A stretch of 59,357 bases of DNA, the filler included, from Sphacelaria rigidula (lineage: Eukaryota), in NCBI GenBank assembly GCA_964200075.2. It is 9 parts of 9 records of this genome, joined end to end, with 100 filler letters (N's around TTAATTAATTAA, not from the genome) between each part and the next. Parts side by side here need not be neighbours in the genome. Positions count along the whole stretch, not along the records: positions 6,608 to 13,114 come from CAXNAA020019669.1; 8 more parts are not named here. One strand, 5' to 3'. Position 1 is the first letter of the stretch. The number at the start of each line of letters is the position of its first letter. The notes under the pieces were generated by a model. The model was given only the letters and a program-made list of their open reading frames with translations. It searched no databases and was not told the origin of the DNA. Below are positions 1 to 53,460 of the stretch, piece after piece. A program made the translations under genes and the position numbers.

Positions 1-405
1 CTAGCACGTTCCGTTTCTCCTTGTTTAGTTCACATTCTGCCACTATATAACTTCTGCTCTCTACTCCTTTGCCACAGGGGCAGTTCTGTCCCTCTACTCC
101 CTCCTCCTTTCGACGACTGGTATATAACTTTCTTCTTTCTGGCAGGTCCAGGTCCCCCACCCAAAATCGCGGTTGCATATTTTTCGCAGCGTCCGTTGGG
201 CCCTGCAAATACGCGTTCATCCCTTTCGCCGCTCTCAAGCACCCGTATATCTCCAGGTGTTCTCCCTCGTCTACTTTGCGTCTGAGCCCTCCTTTTCCCC
301 TTATTTATATCATATCTCTTACTTTTGCCTTGTGCACCGCGTCTTCATCTATGAACAGTATTTCGTCTTGGTTTTTTCTCATCTCCTTCGATACTTGCTC
401 GGCTT
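1..405 (-). mobile_element. Degenerate 3' fragment of non-LTR retrotransposon (LINE family B), ORF2 C-terminal region
   Basis: Colinear nucleotide similarity to 7485-7880. Translates to EHLEIYGCLR...YLQGPTDAAK...VGDLDLPERRK and CPCGKGVESRSYIVAECE (degenerate LINE C-terminal Cys/His knuckle). Contains stops/frameshifts. A G-run (ggaggggggtg, ~408-418) lies at the 5' junction. Confidence 0.8.
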
Positions 406-6507: not shown

Positions 6508-6607
6508 NNNNNNNNNNNNNNNNNNNNNNNNNNNNNNNNNNNNNNNNNNNNTTAATTAATTAANNNNNNNNNNNNNNNNNNNNNNNNNNNNNNNNNNNNN
6601 NNNNNNN
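6508..6607. other. Artificial contig linker N44-TTAATTAATTAA-N44 (also 13115-13214, 19722-19821, 26328-26427, 32934-33033, 39540-39639, 46146-46245, 52752-52851)
   Basis: Eight identical 100-bp spacers with stops in all six frames; intervening contigs are 6506-6507 bp in non-increasing length order. Confidence 0.98.
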
Positions 6608-7123
6608 GGGCTCGGACAGCCTTGAGGAAGCGGAGAAGGCGAACCCATCCCCAACAGGGAATACAAAGGTGAGCAAGGGATGGTGCGTGGGCTGGGATGA
6701 TGCTGAAATGACTGCGGTAGAGTCACAGACATGTCTGTGATGTATGTTTATGCCAACGCGACCCATTGTTCAGTCGACATTCATGTATGGATACTCGCGC
6801 AGTTAATACCCCTAATTGGTCTGAAGGAAAATGGTCAAGGCGCACGTGTCACAGGTTGCGATGTATCCCCCTGCAAGTGATACCCGCAATAAAGATGAAA
6901 TTACGGAGAATGATAATATGTACAACATTCTCCAAGAATGCCCGCCATCTCGGCGATTCGGCGTCGATTTTAGCCAGGAACAAGGGAGGATTAGCGGATG
7001 GTGCCCCCTCTGAGAGACTTGTCGTACTTTTCAAGAGGAATCCCGTGCACTTCTTTAATCTTCCACACGTCTAGTTTGACTTCCGGTCGGACTGGCAATA
7101 CTTCACACGAAGTCATACAACTT

Positions 7124-7175
7124 GGGGTGTACTCATGATCCTGCATGCCATAGTCATATGACCGTTGACCTCGCA
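7124..7175 (-). mobile_element. Family A retroelement, extreme 3' end (~50 nt), flanked by TSD caacttgggg
   Basis: tgtactcatgatcctgcatgccatagtcatatgaccgttgacctcgca matches other family A copies; caacttgggg at 7118-7127 and 7174-7183. Confidence 0.85.
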
Positions 7176-7179
7176 ACTT

Positions 7180-8512
7180 GGGGGGGAGGGCGGGGGTGGG
7201 CGTACTCGTCTGTTGCTTGCCTTAGTCGTTTAACCAATGACCACGCATCCCTTTCGAGACGGAGCACCGTTCCTACTCCTCATGGAGACACCTCCAACAT
7301 TTTGGCGTCCACTATACGTATCTTCCTTACTCTACACACAAGAGGGTTGTGCATATCTTATCCCCTTCCTGTGTCGCCGTCTGTGACCACCATCTATCTC
7401 CTGGTATTGCCATCGCTTCTTCGCTACTGTCTGATGCACCAATGATTTCATGCCACCTTGGTTTACTTCCCACATTTCCCCCTCTAACACGTCCCGTTCC
7501 TCGTTGAATAGTTCACGGTCCGTCACTGTATGAGTTCTACTATATAGTGCTTGACCACAGGGGCAATTCTGTGAATTTACTTTCTCCAGCGATTTCTCTC
7601 TTCGTTTTTCTGGCTGGTCCAGGTTCTCCACCCGAATTGGCAGTTTCAATTTTTTCGCGGAGTTGATTAGGCCATGCAGATACGTTTTCATCTCTACTCC
7701 CTCTCTCAACCGTCCGTATATCTCCAGGTGCTCCTCTTCGTATGCTTTCCGTCTCAGCGCTTCTTCTCCCCTTATTTCTATCATGTTTCTTACTTTTTTC
7801 TTGTACCCCCCGCATTCACCTATGGACACCATCTCGTCTTGGTTCCTCCCTACGTTCTCCCGTACTTTTCGACACCTCTATCCCACCTTATTCCAGCCCG
7901 TCCTTTCGTCACTTTCTTCCATGCAGCCCTATCGACCATGGCTGGCAATCTCGACCTTGGCATGCCCCTTACGCTATTTTGCCATCTCAATTTCTCTATG
8001 TCCCTGTTAGTTTCAAGTGGGTACATTCCCAATTCTGCTCTCATTGCTGTATTACTCGTCGTTTGTGAGCACCGAAGCATTTTCTTCGCTGCTGTCATCG
8101 GTACTGTTCCCAGCTTCTTCATCAACTTTTCATTCCCCTCCTATACTTCTCCATGTTCTAGCATCGGTATAGTCACGTTCATCATAATAAACGTGTTAAT
8201 CTTAGCATCTAGGTGAGAGTCTCTTGGGATCACGTCCATCTTGCCAATCTGTGCCTTACCCTTCTATATTATTGTATCCATGTTTTCATCCCAAGAGCAG
8301 CTTTTGAGATCTCTATGCCAAGGTATGTATCCCAGTGTACGATCGACAGTTCTTCTTCTCTCCACTTTCATTTTAACACTTCTGGGTTTTCGTTCTCTTT
8401 GATACATGCAAGTACCGCGCATTTGTTTACGTCAGTGGTCACTCTCAATTTCCTATTGTACTCTAGTGCCTTCCCTAGTTGTCCCTACACTCCTTCTGGT
8501 GTTTCTGATATC
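7180..8512 (-). mobile_element. 5'-truncated degenerate LINE (family B): RT C-terminal/thumb region to 3' end, followed by a C-rich tract
   Basis: Broken ORFs 7850-8125 (TAAKKMLRCSQTTSNTAMRAELGMYPL) and 7332-7832 (EHLEIYGRLREG..CPCGQALYSRTH) resemble LINE ORF2 C-termini. Ends GAGTACG then CCCACCCCCGCCCTCCCCCCC. Confidence 0.85.
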
Positions 8513-9301
8513 CCCAAATTTGGGGAGCGAAGACAATTGGGTTGTCAGGAACAATACATGTTTGCAACAAGACAGTGGAAAACGTTTTGGGGAGAAATCC
8601 CGTCCTCACGACATTCATAATCGCCCTCCAACCGTCATAATTTCGTGATGACATTACAAAAAACGAAGTCTGAACATCCTTCGAGTTCTTCCAACAATGT
8701 CAGAGAAACCCAAGAGAACGTTTTGATCATTTTCCCCCTTGAGAAGTCGCTGGTCTGATCAAGAAGCGCCTAGCTGGGCATATGAAGTACCAGAAAAACA
8801 CTGTGGAACCTTCCCACAGAGTACAACGTATCTCTCCGACAAGGGACAATCAGACAAGCTCTCTCTTCCGCAGGAAATCGACACCGACCCGCCAGCATAG
8901 GCATTCTTCCGAAAAAGTGTTTTTTTCCAGTCAAAAATCACTACGCAACAAAGCTTGCTCTGCAATATTGCAGTGGGGAGGTGGCAGCGGCATGAGCTAT
9001 AGACAACACGCTTCGAAATGATTTGAGGTCAGGAAGCAGGGAGTATGCTGCCGTTCGAAGAATATCAGACGTTCGGTGAAGCCGAAAGAGTGAGATGCAT
9101 ACAGCAACTCAATGGCCCTCGTTCAACACGGATAGAGAATGACAACTGTGTGTTGGGCACCTTCCTGTAGACTAGTTGGGGCTAACTAATCTACTGCATG
9201 GGCATTCATGCATGAACGTTGACTCAGCAATGGGTTGCATTGGCATAAACGCACAACGCGGACATCCTTACAACCCCGCCGCAGCAATCAGCAGCATCAC
9301 C

Positions 9302-10570: not shown

Positions 10571-13500
10571 TTAAGTGAGAACAACACAAAAACAAAGCAT
10601 CGGCGAAGTGCACTTGCGATGATTTCGGGGTTCCTCGGTTGTCCTGACGTTGCCTCAACCCGTGGCGGTTCAATCGAAATTGTATACAGCGGCCCGAACA
10701 AGGCCCTGTAGAGCAAAAAGAGACTATTGCTGTTGCCTCATGTCCGCAGATTCGCCCTACGCCTCTAGTAAATAGGCCTTGTTTCCACGCTCTTCATCCA
10801 GGGCACGGAACGTATCGTGTAGTTTTAGTGTGACGCTTTGGTATAAATTCGGTGGCGGCAGCAATTTACGCGGCCTGTCACCACAGGAATACTCTTGCTT
10901 CTAACGTAATTGGTGAGCTAAACCAATAGGACCTACGGCAACTAGCACCGCAAGAGAGCTATTCGATCACCATGAGCTCCAGTGCCAACTGGATTGTCTC
11001 TCACCATCTTCACTGAATCGCCCGTGGGTCGAGCCACGCTCCACTACATCCAGATCGTCCTTGCCGAACCTGAGCCTTTCTCCACAGCTGCGGGTTTGCC
11101 TAACCTCCCCGCATATTGCTTTCTCGCGATCTAATTCAGAAGGAGGACGCGAGTGAAAGTGGGTTGGAATAAAGAAATGTGAAAGGAGATGCTCGCGAAG
11201 TAGCAACGTGTCGTCTTGAGCCACTACTGTGCCTTTGATATGGGGTCCGACACTGAAATTTATAGCACAATGAGGGCCGCTGGCGCCGACTGGGAATCGT
11301 TGATCAGCCCACGTTGTTCACGGCGTTTTTGCAAATTGATGCAAGGCTTCCCATGATCCTTCGAAATCTCACACGACATCGAATTCTGCCCAATCAATCC
11401 TCCGACGTCGCTGATTCTCCGGCGTTTGCTCGCCCCTTGCTCTCCGTCCCGTCCCACCTGTGCGGCAGGAGAATGCAATACACGCGAGGTAAAGTGTTTT
11501 GCTGATACCACCCGTGGATAGGTGTTTGGTACCACGATAACGTTGACTACCGCGGCGCAGCGCACAATTACTGAGACAGCTGGACGGCAATCGCAGCGTT
11601 GATGACCCAACAGCTTCGAATCTAAACAGGTGCCGCGTGGTCGCTATGCGCAACATGCACAAGATGCTGAAGTCTTCGCGGGTAATTGGTGGAAAATTGA
11701 ATACGTGAAAGCCATATTTTCGGTTCACCCCTGCCTGGTGCGTGATAATACTACTGTGAACACATAGTCATTACAGTATATCCTGGCCTCGCTATGAAAG
11801 ACCTTTCTCAAGCCACTCGATTTTCAAACCGCTGTTCATTCCTACAGCACACCCTGACTTCTAACAGAGCTGATCACCCCGTAGTTTCCATCCCTCGACA
11901 TAAACACGCGTGAAAATATCCCACAGAGTAGACCAGGTATGACGCAGTCCTTCTACACAGTCAAACAGCCCTATAATCATCCTTACATCCTGGTCGTTGT
12001 CCTCCATGACCATATTTTCATGGACAGCCCACAGCGTCTCCACCTGGGATGGAGGCAGCGATCAGACAGGGCAAACACTCAACGGAGTAGTGCGACGATG
12101 GGGCATCTATCCGACGAGCTACAGCGTGGAAACGAACACTCAGGAAAGTTTCTCTAGCATCCCTGGTATTGCTTGAAACCCCGTGCCGTTTTGGTAACGC
12201 GGTTCCACGGATCATACAACTACGCAGGCAGGGTACGAGAGCAACACTTGACTACGGAGAGGGGATCAACATTGTTCATGGGTCCTGGCGGTTGAATTGA
12301 CACTACCCTCAGTTATTGAATGACCCAGGGAGTAGCAGCGAGACCAAGGCTGGAGGCGCATGACGAATGAGGGCTATGGGCGCTGGTGATGGATGACTCG
12401 AGGAGTATGTTCAACACATAGATAAGTGCTTGGACACACGCATCAAGCGTTGTAAGCCCTGGAGTATATAAATCCGTTTACCGAAGTCTTCATGACAATA
12501 TGCGTGGTGACATTTGTGACGCCGTAGGACGTCACATTAATAACGTTGCCTGCTCCTATTTCACATCTCTTTGATACTACAAAAGTATATGATGCCACGA
12601 ATATGTGTGTTTCCTGGGCATGTTGTATAATGATGAGCGCTCGACTCTAATGGTGAACCCCAGCTTTAGCTACCTACATCGACTACAGTACATTTACACA
12701 CATCTATACAATGTAGCATGTCGTGCTACACACCTGTCGAATTGCGTTCCTCTCATTCTCTCGTAGTCTTCGTTCGTGAGCCTCTTCTGCTTGAGCCGCT
12801 GCCCTCTGCATGGCGGGGTGCAACCCGACTCTGCCATTCAGCATACCAACCGTGTGTTCATATGAGGGAGGGGGGAGGTGCTGTTCGGCGATCTACTTGA
12901 TGTATTACGTGTACAAGAAAATGCAGGCTTTCGAGATAGTCGTGAGAACGTTCAGCCCACAGTTCCGTCGGGTGGTACTTGATGTGTGATCAGTACATGA
13001 GCGTACACCAGTGACAACCTTCCGGTGGACAGTGCCCAAGATTGGGGGAGGGGGGGGGGGGGGGGAGCCGCAGCGGGGCTTAGTTGGGGCTGCGTCGATA
13101 AGTCCCAGTTGAGANNNNNNNNNNNNNNNNNNNNNNNNNNNNNNNNNNNNNNNNNNNNTTAATTAATTAANNNNNNNNNNNNNNNNNNNNNNNNNNNNNN
13201 NNNNNNNNNNNNNNCTCAACTAGTAGAGCAAGTCATTCCCAGGTGTCGAACTCCGCCTAGCTCTCTTTTGGGGCGTAAAACGACATCGAAGCTCCAAAAA
13301 GACACTTGTTCAGATTTTTAATTTTGTCTATTATAAGAAGCGGCCTAAGGCAGGGAAACACAGGTTCGATTCCCGCCATAGGCGTCTTTTATAGCTTGGC
13401 CTTTTGCCTCAAAATTATCAAAATTATCTGATTTTTCCATGGTTGACAGCGTGAGGACGTGAGTAGCAAAAGTAGTCTCTTGGCTGAGTTTGTTAGGTGT

Positions 13501-15284: not shown

Positions 15285-18240
15285 GTGAGTGTTGCTAGAT
15301 CCTTCATTGCCGCAGTACATCTCAACCCCGTGACATTTGATAGTCGAAGTCTAGATTACCAACGTCATCCAGCCAGTGCTGGCTATTCGGTCAATAGCTT
15401 GTACGTGCCAGACCGCTCCTTTTTATTATCCGGAAACGTCGCAGAAACCGCCACGCTCATTGCCCGAGAAGAGGGCCACTGATAGGCGAGTTTCGACACC
15501 TCGGAATGACTTTCCTCCACCAATTGGGAGGATTCCGGGGCACCTTCGCACAGTTGAAGTCTTGGCCAGACTATTAATAGAACTTTATGGGATAAACAGT
15601 CAGACTACATCAGGTCGTTTGTTTTTATTAAAAAGAAGAATCTCGTAGGAAAATGACTTTCGGGTCCTATCCGCTAGGTTTACAGCCTGGGCAAGAGGGC
15701 TAGGTAGGCTCTGACACCTCGGAATGACGCGCTCTACTTACTGCTTGAATGAGTGCCTTTCCGAGGCACCGCTGGACTTTCCGGTGGGCGCCCTGGAATT
15801 TTTCGGCCAGAGCAGCGTAATAACTCCTTGGACAAGCGGTCGAAGTTAACAATTTCTCCGATTGCGTTGGAACATTTCCGCACGTTTGGTGTTTTTTTTG
15901 TGTCGTTACCGTAGGCCGCTTCTCATAACCTAGAAAACACCCTGGGGAAAGCCTGGTTTCTTCTAACCTTTTTTCGACCTCGGTTACCGACGAAAACATT
16001 TTGCCAAACCGTAAATTCCAACTGCGGAAGAACTTTTGCGGATTTATCACCAGAATGGGGGCGGAGCGCCCACCCCGGTGATGCTTGCTGCTTGCCATCA
16101 TTTAGTTGGTGTACGAGACAGTGGCTGCTCTACGGTCTACTATGTCCAGAACTGTACCTTTCTTCTTGACTCGTTACCCTTTGGATCCCTCCCCTTACTC
16201 GGGACGAGTCCGTAGTCTCAAGGGATCAACCCATCTCTCACATGGTACACACCTTGCATTTTGGTCTCGCAGATTGGATCGGCACTCCCGCACTCCCGCA
16301 CCGCGTCCATCCTCGTCTAACAAACTCACAGTTGAACAAAAAACTCACAGTCGAACAACAAACTCACAGTCGAACAACAAACTATTTTTGTCCGATACTC
16401 ACGTCCTCACGCTTTCAAGGACGTAAACCCGAAATTGGGAAGATAAAACCCGAACATGTGTACTGTATCTGGCGGGATTCGAACCCGCGTTCTTAACATT
16501 CTCATAAGTGCCACATGCACGTACTGTACCATTCAATACCATTACACCACCGGGGCGCGGCGGCCTCATGTATTTATGTTTGTACTGCACATCTCCGTAC
16601 TCGCATGCACTGTCTGTGCAATTCCCCGACTGTGCGACTGTCCAGCACGTGCTGCGCATTCTACTGCTGTCGTTCTTGCATGTGTACATTTGGTGTACAG
16701 CGATGTACTGCAGCTGTACACACTGTGTACTGTGCCTACTCAGTGGCACTGACTGTATCCTGCTCTTACTGTACCGTGCATCTTGCGTGCGGCGTGTACG
16801 ATGCCCCTTGCTGTCAGTACAACTAGGAACAGAGTACTTTGCGATACTGCAGGTGTTTTTGGTAATCCCCGTTCCTGACGAATTGTGATCGTTTCCGAAA
16901 CAGCCTGCTTATCTTGGCGAGTTGGCGGAAACACATCTCTCGCTGCAATTTTTTTCCCATCTCGGACATTTTTTCTCCCAGAGAAGTACCTATTGAAAAA
17001 GATTTCAGGAAAACTCACTGGAAACACGCCAAACGGTTTTCAGACTGGACTTCTCAGATTAACACACTACACTACAGAAAATCCCTGGTCCGCTCGAGAA
17101 TCAAGCTGTGTGCACCGGGAAGTGCGAAATCGTGATGGAAATTGGATGGTTCTGGTACCGGAAGTGGGTTGACCAAAGTTTATTATGAAATAGAGGTTGT
17201 CGCTGGGGATGCGGAGCAAAGTGGGCTCCGGTGGCGATCTGACACCACGAGTCACGTATGTCCCCCGGCGCGCCAAACACAGTAGCAAATCCCGCTGCGT
17301 GTAACCGTCCAAACATAACACAAACACGCTTCCTTACCATAATACCAATATACCGTAGGTCCCAATAACGTAGACCCTACTGACCCTGTTCACGCGAACA
17401 ACGGAGCCTTCTCGGGTAGTCGAGAAAGTTGTCCCGAGGTTGGTGGTCCCGCTTACCATGCAGCCTATTTTTCGGGCGTATAACTCTACGAAGGGAATAA
17501 AACGGCACTTTTCCGATATATATTCACCGCATTGAAAGCGGATGCACAAAAACTATTTTTCAACCCTGGAAAAGTTTGAGGTGAAGGTACACAACGTTAT
17601 TGGAAGATTCAAATTATATCGGTCAAATTCTTACGCCATGGCGTGGGCATTGGTGGCAAAATTCAGAACTGAGAATAAATCTTGTCATGACCGAAAACCA
17701 GGTGATATACCACATCTTACGAGACATCACAATTTTGCACGATTTGATTTTTTCTGTGAATATTCCGAGTGATCCGCATGGCAATTTTCTTCTGTTTTCA
17801 TGGCTCTGTGCACTAATACTCATCCTTGCATCCCACAAGTCATGGTACATACCGATGATTAGAGTGAACTTTCTCCCACCACGTACCTACACCCTCACTG
17901 GAGCAGCCTACCAAGTCTTGGAGTATATATAGCGTGGACAGTGGCCGTCGTCCTGCTACTCGCAGTGATGGATGTCAGTTTTATTGCCTCATTTTCGGCG
18001 TAGCTGGATGACGGAAGTCGCTGGATAGCGAGTAGTCCTCACATGCCCGAACGAGACCGATAGTGTGTAACCATGTAGGTCTCCGGAACAAGAGAGTTTT
18101 TCTTGTGCAAACTATTTGCGCGCGATTGTCTGCAGTTCGTGTACAACCTCCTTGGCAACAACGTTGCCCCCCACGAATGTTGTCATAATCTCGCAATCAA
18201 CTACTGTTCTTTCCCATCCATCACTGACGATATGAAACAG

Positions 18241-18922
18241 GCGCAAGGAAATGGATATGTTGGCAGATCAGAAGCGAGGTTGGCAAGGACGGTCGGGCGG
18301 GGTAGTGGCAGCTTCAGCCAGAAAATATTCCAGTAGTCGAACCAAGTCATCGTCGAGACGATCTCGTGGATCTGGCGGAACAGAGGGCAGTGATGACACA
18401 CTGGATTCTATTCTCGTAACGCCCACTGATTGTCGCCAGTTTCAGCGAGTTTGGCGACGCCGGTGCGCCACGGATGACGCGCGACGCGATTACCTGCGCT
18501 TCGTTGGAGCCAAGAGATTCGAAGCATTGTTTCGTGTGGAGATGGAGCCGGATTTACTGGGACAAGTGCTCATGACCATTTGCAGTGGATTTCCGTCATT
18601 TTTTTCTGTTGGCAAACCATCCAAGGGAAGCAGCATGGATTCCCAATCCCAAGAATCGGCGGAGGGCAGTGGCCGCTGTGACGAAGGAAACGAGGGCACG
18701 CCACCAGCAACCCAACTTTCTGCGCACCCCGCCATCGAGTGCATGCAGTGGCTCTCTTCGTTCTCTCGGACTGGGCGTTTCAGAATCAACATCAATTTCT
18801 TGGAGAAACGTGAAAAACGCGCGATTGCTGACTTGTTTGAGTGCCTCAGAGCCTTGTTAGTTGGTCATGGCGAGGCCAATGATTCCGCACTTCGCTCCTT
18901 GCAGGAGACGTACTCGCTTTAG
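18241..18922 (+). CDS. CCDC103: CCDC103-like, terminal exon with RPAP3-like C-terminal domain
   Basis: Acceptor aaacag|g, in frame with the 223-aa ORF. PTDCRQFQRVWRR, YLRFVG..FEALFRVEMEPDLLGQVL and FSRTGRFRININFLEKREK resemble the RPAP3_C domain. Stop TAG at 18920-18922. Confidence 0.85.
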
Positions 18923-20758
18923 GTTGAACAATGCCTTTTTCAAGTTCCGCGGTACCGGAAGCGTTCCAGATGCCGCACTCTGTTATTTCTCGACTATACA
19001 GTATGCAAGCTGTACTCGAAACGTACGGCGACGCGTTTAACCCTGAGCTTTGTCGAGGGTGCCCGTCGAGAGCTGATTTGTTGTGAATATAAGGTATACA
19101 TGTCCATAAAGCCCCTGTGCATTACTCCCGTTCAAGATACATGCGGGGAGACTGCGTGCGATGTGGAACTTTCACATCATTCCACAAGAGGACAAATCGG
19201 CCAACATACGTGCTCCTGATCAGTCAACATATTTGTCACTTTTGTGCGTGCAGAGTGTACCGCAGAGAGCAGCCCTTCCCGACGTGGGGCAGTAAGATAA
19301 ACAAGTACCGCTTGAACACGGTCAGCTAACGAATAGCGAGCGAGAGTGCGAAGACCGGGATAAGTATTTCGACAGGTTGTTGATCGTACTTCGAGGTTCG
19401 TATAATAATGATGACGCACAAGAGCGAGGTCAATTAGTGATTGTAAACTGTGATGTAGGTGTGATATACGCACGTGTGGTGGTTGACAGCAGGTCAGCTA
19501 GCAGCAGCACCACCACCACCACTACCACCACCACCAAAATTCTCACCGCATCCAACAGTAAAGTAGTAGCGGCCCGCTACTAAAACAAGAAACAACTTCT
19601 GTTTCGGGCCGTGGGTCACACAGAATATCATATTCTAACCCAAAACAGACAACAGCCGATTTTCGAAAATGGGGTTGAAAAAAAAACGAGGTTCAACTCA
19701 AAAGCCGTGCTTTCCCTGACCNNNNNNNNNNNNNNNNNNNNNNNNNNNNNNNNNNNNNNNNNNNNTTAATTAATTAANNNNNNNNNNNNNNNNNNNNNNN
19801 NNNNNNNNNNNNNNNNNNNNNTCTGCATGCAAGCAGAGGAGGGTAGAAGAGAGGTAGCCGTAACTGAAGTACAACCGTGCCCTCTTCCGCCCCCCCCCCC
19901 CCCCCCCTACTCACCCCTCACCTCTAGACGCCTGGGTTGGCGTCGAGTGGCAACGACGCCGTAAAAAAAAGCCACCAGAACCTAGACGTGACATGTAGAG
20001 ACTGTCACTGGGCATATGCCAGATACCGACGCTAGAAAAAAAACTCCCGAGACCAAGAGCTACATCAGACACGAGATTACCCAAATAGCCATTTGTGTTT
20101 CCCTAGAGTAGATCACAAACCGGGTAGATACATGAAATAACGAAGCAACCCACTTTTCCCCCCTTGCACTACCAGAACTCAGCCCAGACATACACATGAG
20201 GCAACGAAGTAATCCATTTCTTATTATTTTTTCCTTTCTTCCTTTTTTTCTTCTCTTTCTTTTTCCCCCCTACCATATATATATATTTTTTCTGTTATAT
20301 CTTGTTTGCTTACTTCTCCTTTTTTTTTTCTTTGCACTACCAGAGCACAGTCCAGGCATGGACATGCAATATCGAAGCTAATCACTTGTTTTTCTTTACA
20401 CTACCAGAACGCACACCAGATATGGACATTTTAATGTCGAAGTTGATCACTTATTTTTCTTTGCACTACCAGAACACAGCCCGGGCTTAGACATGAAATA
20501 TTTGATGCCGACCACTTATTTTTCTTTGCACTACCAGAACACAGCCTGGACATAGACATGGAATATCGAAGCTGGCCATTTTTCTTATTTGCGATGGGAG
20601 AACACAGCCCAAACATAGACATGAAATATCGAAGCTGACCATTTTTCTTCTTTGGAGTACCAGAACGCAGCTCAAGCACAGGCATGGAACATCGAAGCTA
20701 CCCGTGTTTTGCACTACCAGAACACAACCTGGATATCGACATGAAATATCGAAGCTCA

Positions 20759-21598
20759 CAAGGGTCTGTCGAAAATATATTCCGGGACACGTAGGCCCCA
20801 AGATCGAAACTTTGAGTTTTTGAGCGCGCGGGGGGTGGGGGGGGAGGGGACACCCAGCCTGCTGTTCCCTTGTTTATTGCCGAAGCGTTGGCGGATGCGG
20901 TCGGCTGCCGTGGACACAGATCCTTGGCATGGAGACCGCTGAGATGACGGACAGCTGGCCCCTCCAGGCTCATCACCTACCATGATTACATTCATGGGAT
21001 CATGTTCCGTGTAGTGTGCCTCAACTACCTACCACGGGGGGTGGGGGGGAGGGGACACTCAGCCTGCTGTTCCCTTGTTTATTGCCGAAGCGTTGGCGGA
21101 TGCGGTCGGCTGCCGTGTACACAGATCCTGGCATGGAGACTGCTGAGATGACGGACAGTTGGACCCTCCAGGCTCATCACCTACCATGATTACATTCATG
21201 GGATCATGTTCCGTGTAGTGTGCCTCGACTACCTACCACTAGTAGTGCGGGAAAGTTTGGCGAGGCGTGAGAGAATGTTGCTACTTTGGCTACAGGCTGT
21301 CGCTACCGTGCGGTCGTGTGTTGTACAGAGATGTGTGTGAGCGTTGCCGGCATCCGAGGTCATTTAGACAGGGCGGGCAAGGAGCAGAAGAAAATATACG
21401 ATCTTCGCAAAGCCCGCCAGATTTTTCGGTTTTTGTCAGTGTTGATCGATCTCTTTCAACAATTTCAACAAAAATAAAAAAATAAATCACGAAAAAATAA
21501 CAAAAAAAAGTAAAAAATCATGACAGTTTTCGAAAAATTGGCCTCCGGGAGGAGGGGGGGGCGTGGCGTGTCCGATTTTTTCTCTCGACAGACCCTTG
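20759..21598. mobile_element. Non-autonomous TIR DNA transposon (CAAGGG termini; hAT- or P-like) inserted in the 62-bp array
   Basis: 14-bp perfect TIR caagggtctgtcga / tcgacagacccttg; flanks aagctca and aagctaa (7-8 bp TSD, 1 mismatch); internal ~205-bp tandem duplication. Confidence 0.8.
20830..21239 (+). repeat. Near-identical ~205-bp direct tandem duplication (20830-21035, 21036-21239)
   Basis: Both copies run from a G-run (ggggaggggacac..) to ..actacctaccac with few differences. Confidence 0.95.
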
Positions 21599-23469
21599 AA
21601 GCTAACCATTTTTTTCTTTGTACTACCAGAACACAACCTGAATATAGACACCACACATCTAAGCTAACCACTTTTTCCTCTTCGCACCACCATAACACAG
21701 CCCGTATATAGACAGCACACATCGAAGCTAACCCTTTTTCTCTTTGCACTACCACAACACGGACCGGACATAGACACTACACATCAAAGCTAACCATCCT
21801 TTTTCTTTGCACTACCAGGGAACATCCGACATAGACACGAAATAAAAAGGCTGACCGCCTTTTTCTTTGTATCACCATAACGCAGTCCGGAAATAGGCAC
21901 GAAATATCGAAGCTAACCATTTGTTCTTTTGAATTACCAAAACACGGACCGGGCATAGACTTGAAATGTCGAAGCCGACCACTTCTATTTCCCGAAACCA
22001 AATCGAAAAGCAATCAAGATTCTCGACTATTTCCCCCATATAGTAACAAAGGTGAGGTGTGAAGCAAAGACCATAGCCCAGACATATAAGCAGTGGCGCG
22101 AAGCTTGACCACCTTACGTGCGAATCGAAAATACAGAATATACAACAAGTACAGACGGAATAAGGTTACCTCAACATATTGAATTCACATTGACGTTTAG
22201 ATATCGTGGTGACATACCCAGAGAATTTCACCGAATTCTATTTGGGCGGTCGAAATCTGGTCAGACATTATCTTGAAATTTCCGACATTAGGTGCACAGG
22301 CGTCGAATGAAGGAAATAGGTGGATAAGGCATGGTAAAAACGTCAAGACCTACTGGACGCATGAAACAAACGCTCTGCCAATGACCGACCACATGATCAA
22401 AAAGAAGGATTACCAAGCGGTACGTAGATTTCATGAGATATTGAAGGATAGAAACTGGTACAAAGTGTGGGGGGAACGTTGGTCAAGCTTTCGGCTGCGA
22501 ACATCTACTCGAGAGCATCAGTGGAGAAGCGACACACGTTAAACCGTACATGGAGTGGGAGGAAGTGATGATGTACGGGATATTCCGACGTGTAAGAAAC
22601 ATTTTGTGTCACGGAAGCCGTCCTTGAACCTTATACGATGGTGACAATCTCCCTGGAGGAGAGCAAGGGGGACAGCAGTGGGAGAACAAGGTAAAATATA
22701 CGATCGTGGGACACCTGGATGCTTTACCATGCAGATCGTCTGGTACAAACGGGGGGTACTTGTGTCAAGGGTGTTGGGCTTGGCTTCAGGCTACGAGCCC
22801 GTGTTGGAGGCATTAATTAATGTCGGTGAGCCAGAAAAAGGAATAAAATAGACCAGACCCCCAACGAGTACTAGGATTGGGGTGTCCCAGTACGTTGACT
22901 ACATCCCACTGCAATACTCAGAACAAGAAAGCTGGAGATACTCTCGGAAGAGACCGAGAGAGCAACGGGAAGGAAGGGCGGATGGAGAAGTGAAGAGTAG
23001 ATAGGTAAAGTGTTAGTAGAGCTGGTATTCGGAGTATGATGAGAACAGAGTCAAGGGGGGAATACGATGAAGTAGGACGATACTATTTGACAATAGGAAA
23101 AATAGAACGAGAGGGAGAACACTTCGAAGTCGCGCCAAGACAGAGAGAAAGAGCAAGGAGTGGGAGAGGATAGAGACAAGTGAAGTGTCGGTATGGGTTA
23201 GAAGGGTAGGATGCAGAGTATGTGTAACTAACCAAACAGTAAGTCTAAGACGTAGCCGGCAGGTAGACGGAAGTAAGGGGAAGCAGGAACAACCAAATGG
23301 CTGGAAGGGAAAGGGAAGGGGAACTACCAGCTCAAAGCAAACAGACAAGGACCGAACCGGAAGCGGAATGAAGAAAATCAAGCAAGGGAGAATAGAAGTA
23401 AAGACGACGGAGAGAGAACGCTAGACAAAAGGAAAGTGAGTAAGGAATGATCCGGAAAGGAAGAGAAGT

Positions 23470-26270
23470 TTGAGGATAGGATTGCAGAACTTGTGTGGAT
23501 TCGCCATGAAAGAGCGCAAAAGACTAAAGACAGCCCAACGAATATGTAAGCGCGACCTAGATATAGTGGGGGTCCAAGAGTCATGGGAGAAAGAACGGGC
23601 GGAAATAGGATGCAAAGTTGGAGAGTACGCATGGATAGGTAAAAAGTGGAAGGGGCAGGAACACGAGAAAAGGGATGCAGGGGAAATAGTATTCCTAGTC
23701 AAGGAGTACCTGTGGGACATAATAGAAGTGGTCACCGACACAAAGTTCGACGAGAGAGTATATGGAAAAGGATACCAGGGAAGCGCGGAACGAAGGACTT
23801 TTTCGTAGGGAACATCTACATCCCCTCTGAGTCCAAGAGTACGGTGAGCGATACACAGAGAAAGTTTGGGGAGATAACAGCGGAAGTACAGAAGTACAAA
23901 AGACAGGGAAAAGTATTGTTAGTGGGAGATTCCAATGCAAGGTTTGGAAAGGCAAGCAAGTCAGCGGGATGATAACATTGGACTAAACTGGGAAACGAAG
24001 AAGAATACGAATGGGGTAGACATATCGAAGTTCCTTGAAAAAAACGAGATGAACACGTTGAGCGATAGAGTAAAAAGCCAGATATGCAATGGACTAGACG
24101 GTGCATACAAAATAAATAATAACTCCATTTTTGACTATACAGCGGTGGTATGTGGACGCGGGAAGGAAAAGAAAGTGCACATATGCGCAGAGGACGTGGG
24201 AGCTACAGATTCTTGCCCAATATGGACAGCCAGCAGACGAGAGTTCTAAAAACAGGCGGAGTAGGAAGCTATACAGTCGGAAAATAGATGAACTACAAAT
24301 GAAAGAAAAACAGCAAGAGTTCCAAGAAGAGATGGGCAAAACTGCAGTGAAATATTCCAAGGGCAGGTCGAGTAGAGTATACTCAATACTCAGTATTTTC
24401 GAAGAGTCATAATTTTCGTACTCGAATATTGAGTGGAGTATTTTAGGCCGTACTCGATTGCCTCAAAAATTGAGTAGAGTATGTAGAGGCCGTACTCAAC
24501 CTACTCAAAATTTGAGCAGAGTATTAAGGTCATACCCAAGTGATACTCTATACTCAAGTATTACTGAGAGTACTTACTCAATATTTGAGTAGATGAATGG
24601 AGGCCGTACTCGATCAACTCAAATTTTGAGCAGAGTATTTGAAGCCGTACTCGACCTACTCAGAACTTGAGTAGAGTATTTGAGATCATATTCTATCTAC
24701 TCAAAAATTGAGTAGAGTATTTGAGGTCATACTTAATCTACCCAACTTTTGAGTAGAGTATTTGAGGTCATACTCAACCTACCCGAAAGTTGGGTAGAAT
24801 ATCTGAGGCCGGACCTGATGCATCACCGCTGACTCTCCCATGAAGGAGTCACATGTGCGGCCAGTAGAGTCGCTTATTTTGATAATACCTACCCGACAGT
24901 CCGTCTACTCGATTACTCAATGATGATGAGTAGCGCTTTGTACTGAAAGTGATATCGATGGGGTTAACGGTATCAAGTATGTACTGCCACGGATTGGGGC
25001 AGGTGAGCTGGGGCAGATATGTTCATTCACCTGCACGTTTTATTTTATTTTATGGCTATCATTCACTCATACTCATTGTAGCCCGTGACATACCGCCACT
25101 CATCTAATTGATGGCCATCGTTCGTCCATGTATTCAACATAGTCTGTGAAGTGACGTCTCGAAGTCGCCGACGGTCACGGTTGCTCATCATACCCAAGGG
25201 ATACTCTATACTCAAGTTTTACTGAGAGTGCTTCCTCAAGATTTGAGTAGAGTATTGAAGGTCGCCCTCGATCTACTCAAAATGTGAGTAGAGTATGTGA
25301 GGCCGTACTCGACCTACTCAAAATTTTGAGTAGAGTATTGAGGTCATACCCAAGTGATACTCTGTACCCAAGTATTACTAAGAGTGCTTACTCAATGTTT
25401 GAGTAGAGTATTGGAGGTCGTACCCAATCTACTCAAATATGAGAAGAGCATTTGAGGCCGTACTCGACGTACTCATAATTTGAGTAGAGTAAATACTCGG
25501 GTATTTTACTCGAGTACTCAAAAGTACATACTCTACTCGACCTGCCCTTGAAATATTCCGAGCTGTTGGAAAGCGCAGGTACAATTAACACAGAGATATA
25601 AAATGATCGGGGAGGGGCGCAGCTTATAGAAGGATGGGGGCAATTGGTCAGGACCACAGCACGTGAAGCCATAGGGAACAAAGTAGTCCTATGCAACAGA
25701 GTAGTAAAATGGTGTGGCAAAGAAGTAAGAGAGGCCATGAGAGTAAGGAGATGCCCACGCAAGATGTACATCGGGTAAAACTATGTCAGAGTGGGAGAGT
25801 ATGCTAAAGCTAGAAAGGAGGTTTCAAATATGGTCAAAAATTAAAAAAAAAGGGAATATGGAAAGAGGGAGTTCAAGAATCCAATGGAGCTTTTGATGGG
25901 GGGATGAAGCATATGTGAGTAGGGATACAAGAGACACTGGTGAACAGCTAGGAGATAGATACGGGGATAGCCACACTAAGAGGACAAAACGGTAAAATGG
26001 CTAGTAGCTCGAATACCAAGAGAGAACTACTAGCAGAGCACTACCGGAAACTTGCAACACCAACGACTGGCAGGATTTGGTGGGGAATTCGAGAAATAAA
26101 TCAACGCGTGGGCAGAAGCGCATGTAGAGGCATCCAGGCGGAGAGATAGTGACGCTGAAGAAGTGCAGAGAGAGTTCACGAGAGAGGAAGTGAACGAGTG
26201 TGTAGCTCAACTCAAGAACAGAAAGGCAGCAGGGGCGGATGAAATAGTGAAGGGATTCCTAAAGTACGGG
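23470..26270 (+). mobile_element. Degenerate LINE ORF2: APE endonuclease, linker and start of RT domain (frameshifted, split by a DNA transposon)
   Basis: APE motifs RIGLQNLCG, DLDIVGVQESW, FFVGNIYIP, VLLVGDSNARFG, NTNG, SIFDY; pre-RT motif REFTREEVNECVAQLKNRKAAGADEIVKGFLKYGG at 26163-26270. Confidence 0.9.
24358..25550. mobile_element. Non-autonomous hAT/P-like DNA transposon, 1193 bp
   Basis: 23-bp perfect TIR caagggcaggtcgagtagagtat; perfect 8-bp TSD aaatattc (24350-24357, 25551-25558); subterminal ~41-bp repeats rich in tactc/gagta. Confidence 0.93.
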
Positions 26271-26327
26271 GGGTGTACTCATGACCATGCATGCCATAGT
26301 CATAAGACCATTGACCTCGCATCCCTG
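26268..26327 (-). mobile_element. Family A retroelement 3' end inserted at a GGGGGG inside the LINE (contig end)
   Basis: gggggg-tgtactcatgaccatgcatgccatagtcataagaccattgacctcgcatccctg. Confidence 0.85.
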
Positions 26328-26427
26328 NNNNNNNNNNNNNNNNNNNNNNNNNNNNNNNNNNNNNNNNNNNNTTAATTAATTAANNNNNNNNNNNNNNNNN
26401 NNNNNNNNNNNNNNNNNNNNNNNNNNN

Positions 26428-26581
26428 CCCTTCCCGCAGTTCACCCGCGATGCGACTCGTAGAACACATATAGGCGCTTCGCGCTTGGTGACTGCGAGCC
26501 TGATCCGGCGGAAACTCAGCGTGCTCCGTCCCGGATTTTGAGGGATGCGAAGTGAATGACCTCATGACCACAGCTCCCCCC
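26428..26581 (+). mobile_element. Degenerate family A copy (contig start) upstream of the POR exon
   Basis: gcgcttcgcgcttggtg..gtgctccgtcccggattttgagggatgcg followed by a C-run. Confidence 0.7.
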
Positions 26582-30962: not shown

Positions 30963-31980
30963 AAGGATCGGAGCGTAGTGGGATCTGCGGTTTGTGTATC
31001 GGTACGAATGGTTACATATTGCAACGGATCAAGCTGCCGGATTACAGCGAAGCAGGAATCGGATTCAGCGTAGTCGGGAAAATGAGTGGTACCATATAAG
31101 AAGAGGAATAAGAAATGGAGATAGGTGCACGAGGACGTAGTAAAACAACAGTACAGTACAGCCGTTATTCAGCAATACCGCCAAGCAGCGCAGCAGGCGA
31201 TTTCGTTTCCCATCCCTCCCGCGTAGCAGGGGAAGTGGTATCTTGGTAATCATGTAGGATGGCAGAATGCATTTCTTGCAGTTATACGCCTACAAGTGTC
31301 AGAGGTTTTATGGACGTGCGGTGCACAAGGGGCACCAGAATGTAGAAATGTTACTCGAGAGGGAGACAATGTACCGTCTCTATATATCTTCAGTTCGGGA
31401 ATAACAGCAGCATTTCGCACCGTTTCCTTGCATATGCTTGCCGAAGAAATTAAAAATATATATTCCAGATTCACAAGAGGAGCAAAATATTATTTTCGCA
31501 CAAGACTGATTCATATTCTGGTTCCCTAGTTTGGTGCGTGGCAACCGTACGCAACTTTTTTTTTTTTCGAGAGCAAACCCAAACGGATCTATCTACCTGC
31601 AGGGATTCCAAACGTCCATCGTTCGACCTGACTGTTTTTTCAGCTGTACTACATTTTTTTAATTTTGATCGCTTGGGGGTGCGACGGCAAAGGCGTGCAT
31701 AGTGGAACAAGTGCAGAGCAGGTCGCGCATGGTAAGACATATGATATCAACCCGTTCACGGCAAGCATAGGTCATCCCTCTGTTGAATCCGCTTCGATTT
31801 CACTTCAAGTAAGTATCCATGATCCACATAGACAACCCTCGCGGCCAAGGGTTTAACCCTTCGTAGGTGATGGCGCTTTTTACTAGTACATAGTATACAC
31901 ACCCCCTCCCGCCCCCCGCCGCGCCACCCCCTGATTATCATTCAGATGTGATAAGTTCCCGACTTTTGTGTTGTACAGTA

Positions 31981-32150
31981 CACACCCTGGACAATATGTG
32001 GTCAATACTTGCAATACACAAATAAGCGTACAGCATAAAGTATAGGCCTATTGCAAATATTGCCGGCCGACAATAGTCGCAATAGGCCTATACTTTATGC
32101 TGTACGTTTATTTGTATTGCAAGTATTGACCACATATTGTCCAGGGTGTG
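31981..32150. mobile_element. 170-bp foldback MITE with 8-bp TSD
   Basis: ~73-bp arms cacaccctggacaatatgtggtcaatacttgc..ggcctattgc (one substitution, one 2-nt indel); TSD gtacagta at 31973-31980 and 32151-32158. Confidence 0.93.
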
Positions 32151-32193
32151 GTACAGTACCGCGGAGGGGGACGTACTACAGCCCCCCCCCCCC

Positions 32194-32510
32194 TCCATGA
32201 GCCAGTGTAGCCCGTGGCGGTCCCTGGAGGTAGCGACACCAGAAAATGAAGCAAGTCATTCGAGGCTGCTATCCATACGCAAGAAATATTAGCACGCTTC
32301 GGGCCGAACAATCGTAGCAGTATGCAGCCCACCCTTCATTCGGCTCGCCGAACACACCATGGCGGTTCGCGCGTGGTGATTGATCGTGAGCCTGGTTCGG
32401 CGAAAATCCGGTGTGCCCCGTGCCAGCTTTGTAGGGATGCGAGGTCAATGGTCTTATGACTATGGCTTGCATTATCATGAGTACACCCCCCCCCCCCCCC
32501 CCCCCCCCCC
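32194..32510 (+). mobile_element. Family A retroelement (~290 nt) between two C-runs
   Basis: C12 at the 5' side, then ccatgag..gagtaca, then ~C25; colinear with 53163-53447. Confidence 0.88.
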
Positions 32511-32854
32511 AAACCACCACCAGAACAAAAAAAATTCCCCCCCAACAAAACTANNNNNNNNNNCCTGGTTTTTATCCCTCTGGGTTGCAGTATCTTGAGG
32601 CCCCCCCCCCCCCCCCCCTCTCCCGTACATACCACCGCTGATTCCTGATCTTTTCCCCCCGAGAACGTTTACCCAGGCGAGGAGAATCGAGGGGTCGGGT
32701 TGTTGTGAATACCGCTAGCGACATGCGTGCCAATCTGGACCCTTGTGTGTCTCAATTTCAGTGTAGGCATGCTCTTGCCATAACGCAATGACCCGAAAAT
32801 CTCCGCAGCAGGCGTCTAACCTATTTTGACCACCGGTATAGGTCATCATCTGCT

Positions 32855-32933: not shown

Positions 32934-34038
32934 NNNNNNNNNNNNNNNNNNNNNNNNNNNNNNNNNNNNNNNNNNNNTTAATTAATTAANNNNNNNNNNN
33001 NNNNNNNNNNNNNNNNNNNNNNNNNNNNNNNNNGTTTGCGGGTCCACTAAGTTCCTCAGGTTCAGCTCTGATTGTGTTAGACTGTGTGGTGAACCTTTGC
33101 ATGTGCCCCTGTCAACCGGACACGTATGTTCTCCTTCGAGGTGTCCGGAAATTCCCTCTTGAAAAAGGGATTTTGAAAAAGGGGATTATCTCCTTCGTTA
33201 AGAAGTGTCCTAAGAACCCACCTTAGGGCTCGCGTTATTTCAAATTCGTACATTTCTGATAAACTTTTTCAATCTACCAAGTGGTAACATGACCTGTAGA
33301 CGACTTGGCCAGTTCGCTGTTGCGGCAATGACGCATAATGTCAACTGTCCTAAAATGTGTTGTTGTCAACAGTAAGTGTCGATAGACAGTTATGCCAGTC
33401 ACATGTGGCTGACAACGAGCATTCCACTCACATCTCCGGGGCTATCGTTGACAATTCTCCCTTACAGTATTTTGTCCAAGGTACAAGGTACCTGTCATCT
33501 ACACGCGGAAGTGCCTCGAAAGTCTGAACGCGCTTTTGTTCATCAGCGAGAGAACCCAGAATACCCATATCACAACAACATACGAGCTGGGCCAGCCTGA
33601 AAACGGATACGAGCTCTCACGTCCGTATCTCAGCGACTCAGTAGTAGAGCCGTGATCCACATATCTCATCTCGTGAAGAAAGAAAAAAGGGTCTTTACTA
33701 TGCTAGTGAAAGGTCGACTCGTGAAAAACAAATCAGCGTGTCCCACCCTCTTATTTCCATTATGCCTTACAGTAGCAATTTCCCACACAAAAGTTCAACA
33801 CCACAAGTACCAAAATTGGGGTGATAATACTATTCCGAATTTCCGGGTAAAATTCTGGATCGTCCGTTTTCACCTCAGTTTTGATAGTTGGACTTTCAAA
33901 TTTGGTGTGATGCCCGTAGCTCATGACAAGAAGTCACGAGAATCTTTTCGTCCCAATGTAATTGTTTTTAGTATTCCCTCTTCGTTCCCCAAACCGAAAT
34001 TGAAAGTCCAACAGTTGAGGTGAGAAAGGTCCTGATAC

Positions 34039-39539: not shown

Positions 39540-39639
39540 NNNNNNNNNNNNNNNNNNNNNNNNNNNNNNNNNNNNNNNNNNNNTTAATTAATTAANNNNN
39601 NNNNNNNNNNNNNNNNNNNNNNNNNNNNNNNNNNNNNNN

Positions 39640-39887
39640 ACGGTGCTTCGCGCTTGGTGGTTTGAGTGCAAGCCTGGTCCGGCGAAAACCCTCCATGCTC
39701 CGTCCCGGCATTGCAGGGATGCGAGGTCAGTCGTCTTATGACTATGGCATGCACGATCATGAGTACACCTCCCCTCCCGCCCCTGCCCCCCTCCGGTGCT
39801 CGTCCCGGAAGAAGGAGATGCGTGGTCAATGGTCAAACGATTATCAAGGTAAACAGCAAATGAGTACGCCCCCCCCCGCCCCCCTCC
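39640..39887 (+). mobile_element. Family A 3' part followed by a ~75-nt family B 3' end inserted in its C-rich tail
   Basis: A ends gagtaca at ~39767; B (ggtgctcgtccc..gagtacg) is flanked by gcccccctcc at 39785-39794 and 39878-39887. Confidence 0.85.
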
Positions 39888-51850: not shown

Positions 51851-52611
51851 CCCCTAAAGTTGAACCCTTCGACTCCAATTGAGTCATCTGGATTTCGCAT
51901 TATTTTTTCGAGTCAAAAGTATGTGGAGTCAACATATGACTGACCCTGGGGTGAGTGGCACTTGTCCGTGTATTCCAGAGGGGTACAAGCTCAAGTCGCA
52001 ACGGACGGAGGCTTGAGAGACGGTACGGCGAACATGGCAGTACTAATCTTCTCAACACAACAGACGAAGAGAAGAGTATAATTCAGTCACCATGATGTCC
52101 GTTTCAGTGCACGCCATGTTCCTTGCCTTGTGTTCCCTTTACGGCTGTGTACACAAGTGGCAGCACCTTTCTCAACAGAATATATCGGGGTGCATTACAT
52201 TTGGACATGCGCACGCACCGAAACATAGTTCCTCCGATTCAGATCTATCCGCCGAGGTTTCCCCCCGAACCAATTATGTCTGTGATTATTTTTCACTTTC
52301 ATTAATTGGGAACCGCGCGTTGCTGGGGACACTCCGTCGAAGAATGGATTTTGCTCCCGCGGTTCTCGAGCTTCATTTTTTCATATCATGCGACATGCAG
52401 TACACACGTGCAATGTGGGGTCCCATCATCATATTACGCGACTGTTTGCGCATGATAATAGCAACTGCCAACCTCAAACCAGGACGGCACATTATTTATT
52501 ACTGATTGTGGCTACTCGCAACTCAAAACGGGAGAGTAGTACCCTCATCTCACCCCTCAGCCTCACCTATATCGCGCTTCCTTCCAACCTGAGGAGGGAG
52601 AGGGAGGGGGC

Positions 52612-52751
52612 GGGAGGTGTACTCATGAGCATGCATGCTATAGTCACAAGACAATTGACCCCTACAATGCCGGGATGGAGCACGCCGGGTTTTCGCCGGA
52701 CCAGGCTTGCACTTAAACCACCAACCTCGAAGCGCCGTGGTGTGTTCGGCG
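52612..52751 (-). mobile_element. Family A 3' part next to a G-rich tract (contig end)
   Basis: gggagggggcgggagg-tgtactcatgagcatgcatgc..ggagcacgccgggttttcgccggaccagg. Confidence 0.85.
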
Positions 52752-53090
52752 NNNNNNNNNNNNNNNNNNNNNNNNNNNNNNNNNNNNNNNNNNNNTTAAT
52801 TAATTAANNNNNNNNNNNNNNNNNNNNNNNNNNNNNNNNNNNNNNNNNNNNACTTCCAGAGACAGCCACAGCTTTTACACTGCCTCATGGGTGTCTAACC
52901 AGGTCTCGTAGGGGTATGGGGGGAAGGTTTGATGACTAGGGATTGGTCTCGTAGTCAGGGTAGGGGCACCAGTGGAATAGGGAGCTGAGTCAGCCCTGGG
53001 CTAGGAGAGCGTGTTTTGCCAAATCCAGATCGAACAAGCTGAGTGATTTTGTTCACAAGTCAGAAACGCCTACTCATGGATATCGGGTGG

Positions 53091-53460
53091 GATGGGAGGG
53101 GGGCGTGTACTCATGATCATGCATGCCATAGTCATAAGACCATTGATGGGAGGGGGGGGGGGGGTACTCATGATCATGCATGCCATAGTCATGAGACCGT
53201 TGGCCTCGCATCCCTACAAAGCCGGGACGGAGCACGCCGGGTTTTCGCCGGACCAGGCTTGCACTCAATCACCAAGCGCCGTGGTGTGTTCGGCGAGTCG
53301 CATGAAGGGTGAGCTGCATCCTGCTAATATTGTTCGGCCCGAAGACTACTGATTATCTCGCATTTGGATGACAGCCAACAATGAGTTGCTTAATTCTGTG
53401 GTATCGCAACTTCCAGAGACAGCCACAGCTTTTACACTGCCTCATGGGAGGGGGGGGGGG
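53091..53460 (-). mobile_element. Two stacked family A insertions (~53105-53146 and ~53163-53447) at one target
   Basis: Target atgggagggggg occurs three times (53092-53103, 53146-53157, 53444-53455) and separates the two copies. Confidence 0.9.

Follow-up and report, generated by a model that had tools for sequence, protein, structure and literature searches.

C-tailed retroelements and their probable integration at C/G-runs in DNA from Sphacelaria rigidula

Long interspersed elements (LINEs) integrate by target-primed reverse transcription, and L1 does so by pairing its poly(A) end with T-rich nicks. Can C and G take the place of A and T? The question is raised by a 59,357-nucleotide (nt) stretch of DNA from Sphacelaria rigidula (hereafter the window), in which the copies of a LINE (family B) and of a shorter, non-coding element (family A) end in C-rich tracts and lie at runs of C or G. 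Our overall reading, which we consider probable, is that a C-tailed LINE and its partner integrate at C/G-runs by oligo(C)/oligo(G) pairing. The window is a composite of nine pieces of ~6,506 nt with spacers of the form N44-TTAATTAATTAA-N44 between them. Because the pieces are not contiguous, several element copies are incomplete at the piece borders, and a distance from one piece to another has no meaning; no feature may be read across a spacer join.

The copies on which the analysis draws are the following, with LINE copies placed by tblastn against P0003, a full-length protein relative of family B.

Family B and other LINE copies
1-403, minus strand: further LINE fragment, cut by the window start (P0003 residues 1136-1269)
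7201-8511, minus strand: long B copy (B7), the decayed, 5'-truncated 3' part of a LINE, ending ...GACGAGTACG (P0003 residues 922-1360)
22971-26273, plus strand: second LINE copy, frameshifted, ending at the G6 run where A26 sits (P0003 residues 2-702)
39795-39868, plus strand: B39, a 74-nt, 5'-truncated B copy nested in the tail of A39
Family A
7128-7173, minus strand: A7, 46 nt, 5'-truncated, inserted where the B tail ends
26274-26327, minus strand: A26, 3' end, cut by the piece end
26436-26568, plus strand: A fragment, 3' end diverged or deleted
32194-32485, plus strand: A32, full-length, with C12 upstream (32182-32193) and C25 downstream (32486-32510)
32572-32618, plus strand: diverged A-like 3' end (family D16), followed by C18
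39640-39767, plus strand: A39, 3' part, cut by the piece start
46070-46145, plus strand: 5' part of an A copy, starting TCCATGAGACAG, cut by the piece end
52618-52751, minus strand: A52, 3' part, cut by the piece end
52852-52891, minus strand: 5' part of an A copy, starting CCCATGAGGCAG, cut by the piece start
53106-53145, minus strand: A53s, 40 nt, 5'-truncated, identical to the family consensus over its own length
53164-53448, minus strand: A53, full-length, ending GAGTAC and then C6

Nine 3' ends had been listed in the initial annotation as running into C-rich tracts and never into poly(A). All nine were found at their places, every one runs into a C-rich tract (4 to 27 nt) and none into poly(A). 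The terminus GAGTAC(A/G) stands at eight of the nine, while the ninth (53164-53169, minus strand) reads GAGTAC. Read in element sense, the tails are C4, C6, C6, C9, C13-25, a CG that leads into C-rich sequence, and three impure tracts (21, 27, and 27 nt). A scan of marine metagenomes yielded two further loci, L001 and L002, which share 98% protein identity with P0001, another protein relative, and both extend to the 3' end. Their termini read ...AAATGAGTACG and ...AAATGACTACG and continue with CCTCCCCCCCTCCTCCC... and C11GC5A..., and thus both run into a C-rich tract. An A-rich tract of the L1 kind follows none of these 11 ends (nine in the window plus L001 and L002). In the 10 nt past the terminus, the eight family sites have 4, 8, 7, 10, 8, 9, 8, and 8 C (mean 7.75); the 27 non-family GAGTAC[AG] sites in the window, which served as a control, have a mean of 2.56 and a maximum of 5, and at least eight C occur in random 10-mers with P=0.0027.

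Termini and tails
7128-7134, 7201-7207, 26274-26280, 52618-52624, and 53106-53112, minus strand: GAGTAC(A/G) termini
32479-32485, 39761-39767, and 39862-39868, plus strand: GAGTAC(A/G) termini
7180-7200, minus strand: C-rich tail of the long B copy, CCCACCCCCGCCCTCCCCCCC, with its last four C inside the target-site duplication of the nested A copy
39768-39794, plus strand: C-rich tail of A39, 27 nt
39869-39877, plus strand: C9 tail of the 74-nt B copy
52591-52617, minus strand: C-rich tail of A52, 27 nt

Read directly, the three sets of target-site duplications (TSDs) in the initial annotation sit exactly where it placed them. Of the six copies that can be seen from end to end, five have duplications that begin with a C-run, with lengths of 10 nt (A7 and B39) and 12 nt (A53 and A53s); in A32 the duplication consists of C alone and measures up to 12 nt. 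Because the three TSDs also hold letters other than C (AAGTTG in the first, a leading G together with T in the second, and TCCCAT in the third), a chance origin is unlikely. All three nested 5'-truncated copies lie in the C-tails of older copies. At 53092-53455 the duplication is present three times, which is what re-use of one site would give, that is, two successive insertions using the same two nick positions. At one further site the target can be dated relative to the insertion: the G6 run that adjoins A26 encodes two glycines in the second LINE copy, whose frame reads ...AAGADEIVKGFLKYGG there, and the intact relative P0003 reads KYGGEG at that place. Since the run codes for a conserved Gly-Gly of another LINE, it was present before A26 was inserted.

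Duplications and target run
7118-7127 (3' copy) and 7174-7183 (5' copy), minus strand: TSD of the nested copy A7, CCCCAAGTTG in element sense, 10 nt
39785-39794 (5' copy) and 39878-39887 (3' copy), plus strand: TSD of B39, GCCCCCCTCC, 10 nt
53444-53455, 53146-53157, and 53092-53103, minus strand: three copies of the TSD of A53 and A53s, CCCCCCTCCCAT, 12 nt
26268-26273, plus strand: G6 run, read in the LINE frame as the two Gly of ...KYGG, adjoining the antisense 3' end of A26

What kind of element makes these insertions? The minus strand of 7201-8511 holds a decayed reading frame (three-frame translation), the best piece of which matched 20 proteins at E values up to 0.001 among 65 candidates; the decayed copy is ~72% identical to unnamed metagenome proteins and 60-64% identical to four Ectocarpus proteins over 96 amino acids (aa). 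The full-length relative P0003 (1360 aa) carries Exo_endo_phos at residues 170-392 and RVT_1 at residues 740-989, the make-up of a LINE with an apurinic/apyrimidinic endonuclease (APE)-type endonuclease, and among the solved structures in PDB those nearest to its reverse transcriptase (RT) are L1 ORF2p and R2. Among Ectocarpus proteins, P0003 shares 59% identity with P0021 (74% of the query covered) and 78% identity with P0018 (21% covered). The Ectocarpus proteins P0013, P0015, and P0017 (C-terminus ...GAPSRKGRVVNGQK) are likewise homologous, and P0016 (C-terminus ...KASNK) closely resembles these three on visual comparison of the printed sequences. The second LINE copy (22971-26273), ~44% identical to P0003 and interrupted by several frameshifts, reaches the N-terminus of the open reading frame (ORF; residue 2); a 1.1-kb tandem array breaks it between residues ~462 and ~460.

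The end of this ORF coincides with the end of the element. P0003, P0016, and P0001 all terminate in ...TKASNK, the frame of B7 reads ...KASNRRVRPPP (TKASNRRVRPPP) through the terminus into the tail, and the DNA of L001 has AACAAATGAGTACG and then the C tract. Taken together, the read-through in B7 and the DNA of L001 show that the TGA in TGAGTACG, at the terminus, is the stop codon of the LINE, so that the LINE is practically without a 3' untranslated region (UTR). Copies of 40, 46, 74, ~290, and ~1310 nt share this constant terminus and combine variable 5' truncation with TSDs of 10-12 nt, as LINE copies do. The APE and RT domains in one ORF, the 5'-truncated copies, and the TSDs bear out the initial assignment of the elements to the retroelements without long terminal repeats (non-LTR retroelements). 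Judged by protein homology, family B is the 3' part of a single-ORF APE+RT LINE of a brown alga or a close relative, and the LINE most probably belongs to the RTE-X clade. The LINE was also met in records labelled as bacterial metagenome-assembled genomes, P0002 and L003 (Parasphingorhabdus sp., Reichenbachiella sp.), for which algal DNA that was wrongly binned is the likeliest explanation.

Family A depends on this LINE. It is non-coding and ~290 nt long, and four copies have a common 5' start, YCCATGAGNCAGTGT (start also given as YCCATGAGNCAG). Alignment with B7, B39, L001, and L002 is confined to its last ~75 nt; its body has no match elsewhere in the LINE. No A copy matched an Rfam family at E values up to 1, and ARAGORN found no tRNA in them. 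With a 3' end shared with the LINE, a defined 5' end, and no coding capacity, family A is a LINE-dependent non-autonomous element and not a short interspersed element in the strict sense. Its copies span five of the 16 internal piece ends. The motif CATGAG occurs at both termini, in the start YCCATGAG (32194-32204, 53438-53448, 46070-46080, and 52881-52891) and in the end CATGAGTACA, and could favor junction microhomology or tandem formation. An Rfam match to tmRNA outside the A copies (16461-16546) scored 19 bits against a gathering score of 47 and was taken as chance.

The initial annotation had proposed that these elements are an oligo(C)/oligo(G) analogue of L1 with an endonuclease that prefers G/C-runs. 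The C-rich tail, the integration at C/G-runs, and the TSDs that open with a C-run stand as observed; the endonuclease preference, like the base-pairing between tail and nick and the order of the nicks, is what we infer from them. Our working hypothesis is that the RNA of the LINE would end in an oligo(C) tract encoded past GAGTAC(A/G), and that a first nick in the bottom strand of a C/G-run would expose an oligo(G) 3'-OH. That 3'-OH would then anneal to the oligo(C) tract of the RNA and prime cDNA synthesis in target-primed reverse transcription, and a second nick 10-12 nt downstream would give a TSD that opens with the C-run. Because the 3' copy of a TSD begins at the first, bottom-strand nick, a TSD that opens with C(n) implies a primer ending in G(n)-3'OH, which can pair with a C(n) RNA. 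With the stop codon inside the terminus, the sequence that the RT would recognize is the end of the coding region, and family A may use the machinery of the LINE through the shared ~75-nt 3' end. Each insertion would leave a new C-run, so that old tails become targets and nested and tandem copies arise.

Several observations weigh against this reading. The duplication proposed for the long B copy near 8512-8527 turned out to be a degenerate match (CCCCAAATTTG versus CCCCAAGTTG), and the last 4-5 nt of the TSD of A53 (CCCAT) coincide with the conserved 5' start of the element, so that this TSD may be shorter and the overlap may be junction microhomology. Homopolymers of at least 10 nt in the window show an excess of C and G (C 6, G 7, A 1, and T 4; 13 versus 5), and eight of the 13 C/G-runs have no recognizable A or B copy adjoining them. 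Folding of the shared 3' end as RNA gave a 9-pair hairpin with one compensatory pair and single-sequence z scores of -0.45, +0.13, and -1.09, which are not significant. What points to RTE-X is homology with proteins of Ectocarpus together with tail features of the same kind, and the protein matches carry no clade names. Finally, empty sites were sought in contigs of the sequencing runs X1, X3, X4, and X5 (four runs from two studies) aligned on 52852-54400, and none was bridged; contigs break within this highly abundant repeat, so that the result is uninformative on polymorphism.

Two more of these adverse points would be expected if the C tract were merely the element's own 3' tail, akin to the microsatellite tails of other RTE, CR1, and L2 LINEs, if integration took essentially no account of C/G-runs, and if what look like TSDs were a misread tail. 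First, the border between tail and TSD is ambiguous where both consist of C, so that A7 could have a tail of 0-4 nt and a TSD of 6-10 nt. Second, two of the four visible A 5' ends (46070 and 52891) are not immediately preceded by a C-run; the matching 3' ends fall off the pieces. We nevertheless regard this explanation as improbable: a misread tail does not account for a C-run duplicated together with unique letters on both sides of an insert, nor for a G6 run that belongs to the coding sequence of another LINE, and random integration does not readily place three of three nested truncated copies in C-tracts when there are only 26 runs of at least seven C or G in ~58 kb. Moreover, the curators of Ectocarpus elements likewise record C-rich TSDs (PMC12477816).

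The contigs from the four runs also bear on how the nested and tandem layout arose. Piece 9 is present in sequencing runs of 'organism A' and 'algae metagenome'. The unique flanks have depths of ~27, 25, and 14 (X1, X3, and X4), and between 18,851 and 76,164 contigs of each run align to the A copy, its summed depth, which is not a copy number, being in the millions: family A is extremely abundant. The consensus of loose ends just outside the A 3' end (53148 and 53152) is at least 13 G on the plus strand in X1, X3, and X5, and the loose ends 5' of 53259 are likewise G-runs in X1, X3, and X4. Many contig joints jump back from 53259 to ~53105-53158 with G-rich letters between, indicating an abundant short form of family A of ~100 nt (compare 53164-53259) that starts near CTGGTCCGGCGAAAAC, has C-runs before it, and is often in tandem; the window has no complete example of it. 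One could read such arrays, with their G-rich spacers (for example the joint from 53259 to 53105), as the product of a single event, in which the RT switches templates to the C-rich end of another RNA, or of later unequal recombination, and RTEX-N1 of Ectocarpus is noted by its curators as an element that 'can be present in tandem' (PMC12477816). Each nested copy in the window, however, has its own exact duplication of 10-12 nt with letters other than C, of which template switching yields none, and the three-fold TSD at 53092-53455 fits a re-used site with the same two nick positions. We therefore hold a one-event origin to be unlikely, too, and prefer successive integrations at C/G-runs. Scans of other collections added little: the genome collection gave one locus, L003, without the 3' end, and an 18-nt motif search of viral contigs gave one match, which lay in an unrelated coding region and was dismissed as chance.

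It is less probable still that the C tract is not copied from the source and is instead added without a template by the RT or by a cellular nucleotidyl transferase. Tail lengths do vary widely, as such addition would predict (0-4, 2, 6, 6, 9, 13-25, 21, 27, and 27 nt), yet slippage or a variable pairing register explains the spread equally well, and the DNA of every copy bears a C tract that would be present in read-through transcripts. Non-templated addition is in any case a variant of the proposed mechanism and compatible with C/G-run targeting. An assembly or sequencing artefact can practically be dismissed, even though C/G homopolymers are error-prone and an N10 gap (32554-32563) adjoins such runs, since terminus and C tract also occur in two unrelated metagenome contigs, in four runs of two studies, and in the Ectocarpus library.

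How does integration at C/G-runs compare with known systems? Mammalian L1 with Alu/B1 combines an APE-type endonuclease and an RT with a homopolymer tail and TSDs that open with the tail homopolymer; its new copies often lie in old tails, and 5' truncation and 5'-junction microhomology are found as well. The elements described here differ from L1 in that the homopolymer is C and not A, is presumably encoded in the DNA rather than added by polyadenylation, and follows a single ORF with no separate ORF1; and whereas Alu shares only poly(A) with its LINE, family A shares a specific sequence of ~75 nt, the 'stringent' type of partnership. The insect elements Waldo, Mino, Kibi, and Koshi of the R1 clade, which are of the APE type, target di- or trinucleotide or ACAY repeats in a fixed register. 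They resemble the present elements in entering simple repeats; the elements here are of another clade and their target is a C/G homopolymer of variable length. In the eel pair UnaL2/UnaSINE1, the LINE 3' end plus a short repeat forms the unit of recognition and priming, and the partner copies the LINE 3' end. Compared with that pair, and with Ectocarpus RTE elements that end in (CAA)n, the repeat unit here is the single base C, which according to the TSDs is also the preferred target.

The closest named relatives are in Ectocarpus. The initial annotation suggested, tentatively, a case not yet described, and this did not hold: RTE-X elements with this specificity are already cataloged in a curation table of the Ectocarpus mobilome (Genome Biology, 2025; PMC12477816, Supplementary Material 3). 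In that table, the entry for RTEX-1_Ec32 reads 'single EN-RT ORF; (C)n 3'' and the one for RTEX-2_Ec32 reads '(C)n termini/TSD', and the TSD is given as 'C-rich' for RTEX-1, RTEX-2, RTEX-N1, and RTEX-N2. The 5' heads of RTEX-N1_Ec32 and RTEX-N2_Ec32 are noted there as of unknown origin, with 60-100 nt of the LINE 3' end shared, and the same table assigns (CAA)n to the RTE elements RTE-1 and RTE-2 and (CA)n to CRE. Thus, the Ectocarpus elements and those in the window have in common a single EN-RT ORF, a (C)n 3' end, C-rich TSDs, and abundant non-autonomous partners that share the LINE 3' end and can be in tandem. They differ in partner length (~290 nt with a short form of ~100 nt here, versus 604-607 nt and 188 nt), and the likeness is one of curation notes and proteins. 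As far as its accessible portion goes, the main text of that paper uses 'C-rich' and 'homopolymer' zero times, and tail and TSD appear there as curation notes without a mechanism. A Saccharina paper names RTEX-1 and a Chlorella paper names RTE-X in centromeres, and neither describes tails; literature searches for poly-C or oligo-C tails on non-LTR elements gave no relevant paper among those listed. Among the papers found, none states or tests the mechanism, and the sole record of tail and target is two columns of that supplementary table. We conclude that the kind of element was already known and that the families here come from another brown alga or a close relative; what is added is the stop codon within the terminus, a G-run target that predates an insertion, a site used twice, and the extreme abundance.

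If the reading is right, the logic of L1, in which a homopolymer tail pairs with a nicked target, is not tied to A and T, which is useful for understanding how the specificity of LINE endonucleases and the 3' ends of their RNAs co-evolve. It would also account for the clustering of these repeats, for their tandem arrays, and for some of the poly(C)/poly(G) at which brown-alga assemblies break, and TGAGTAC[AG] followed by C-runs offers annotators a clean terminus by which to delimit copies. A more far-reaching version, to which we incline only slightly, is that brown-algal RTE-X LINEs are the full oligo(C)/oligo(G) counterpart of L1: they would nick after G-runs, lack a 3' UTR, prime from an encoded C-tract, and seed their own targets. 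Were it true, such self-seeding could underlie the tandem arrays, explain why the partner is so numerous, and have produced the surplus of long C/G homopolymers in these genomes.

The remainder of the window contributes the following features.

6508-6607, 13115-13214, 19722-19821, 26328-26427, 32934-33033, 39540-39639, 46146-46245, and 52752-52851: spacers
798, 2175, 13050, 13691, 19890, 28573, 30710, and 50691: C/G-runs of at least 10 nt away from recognizable A or B copies

These C/G-runs may be the tails of other families or free-standing targets. Among 17 long ORFs of the window searched against Pfam, the only host-gene signal was an RPAP3_C domain in the ORF at 18236-18922 (plus strand; E value 5e-14), which marks the DNA as eukaryotic; the decayed RT pieces gave no match. 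The heptamer GAGTACR occurs 35 times in the window, where 11.6 are expected. That the whole excess stems from the family was considered and rejected, since an unrelated tandem array of 41-nt units supplies eight of the 35 matches (24417-25474) and with them much of the surplus. This array, at 24403-25493 inside the second LINE copy, has in each unit a palindrome (CTACTCAAAATTTGAGTAG-like) and a GTACTC motif. Upstream of the start codon of the same LINE copy lie C18 (19890-19907), 64-nt tandem repeats (20099-21976), and ~205-nt repeats that open with G-rich tracts (20831-21251); the region 19890-22970 may be a long 5' UTR of repeated monomers, with C18 as its 5' boundary or TSD. Just upstream of A32, an inverted repeat at 31973-32160, with arms of ~160 nt that are 91% identical, may be a foldback or an element resembling miniature inverted-repeat transposable elements.

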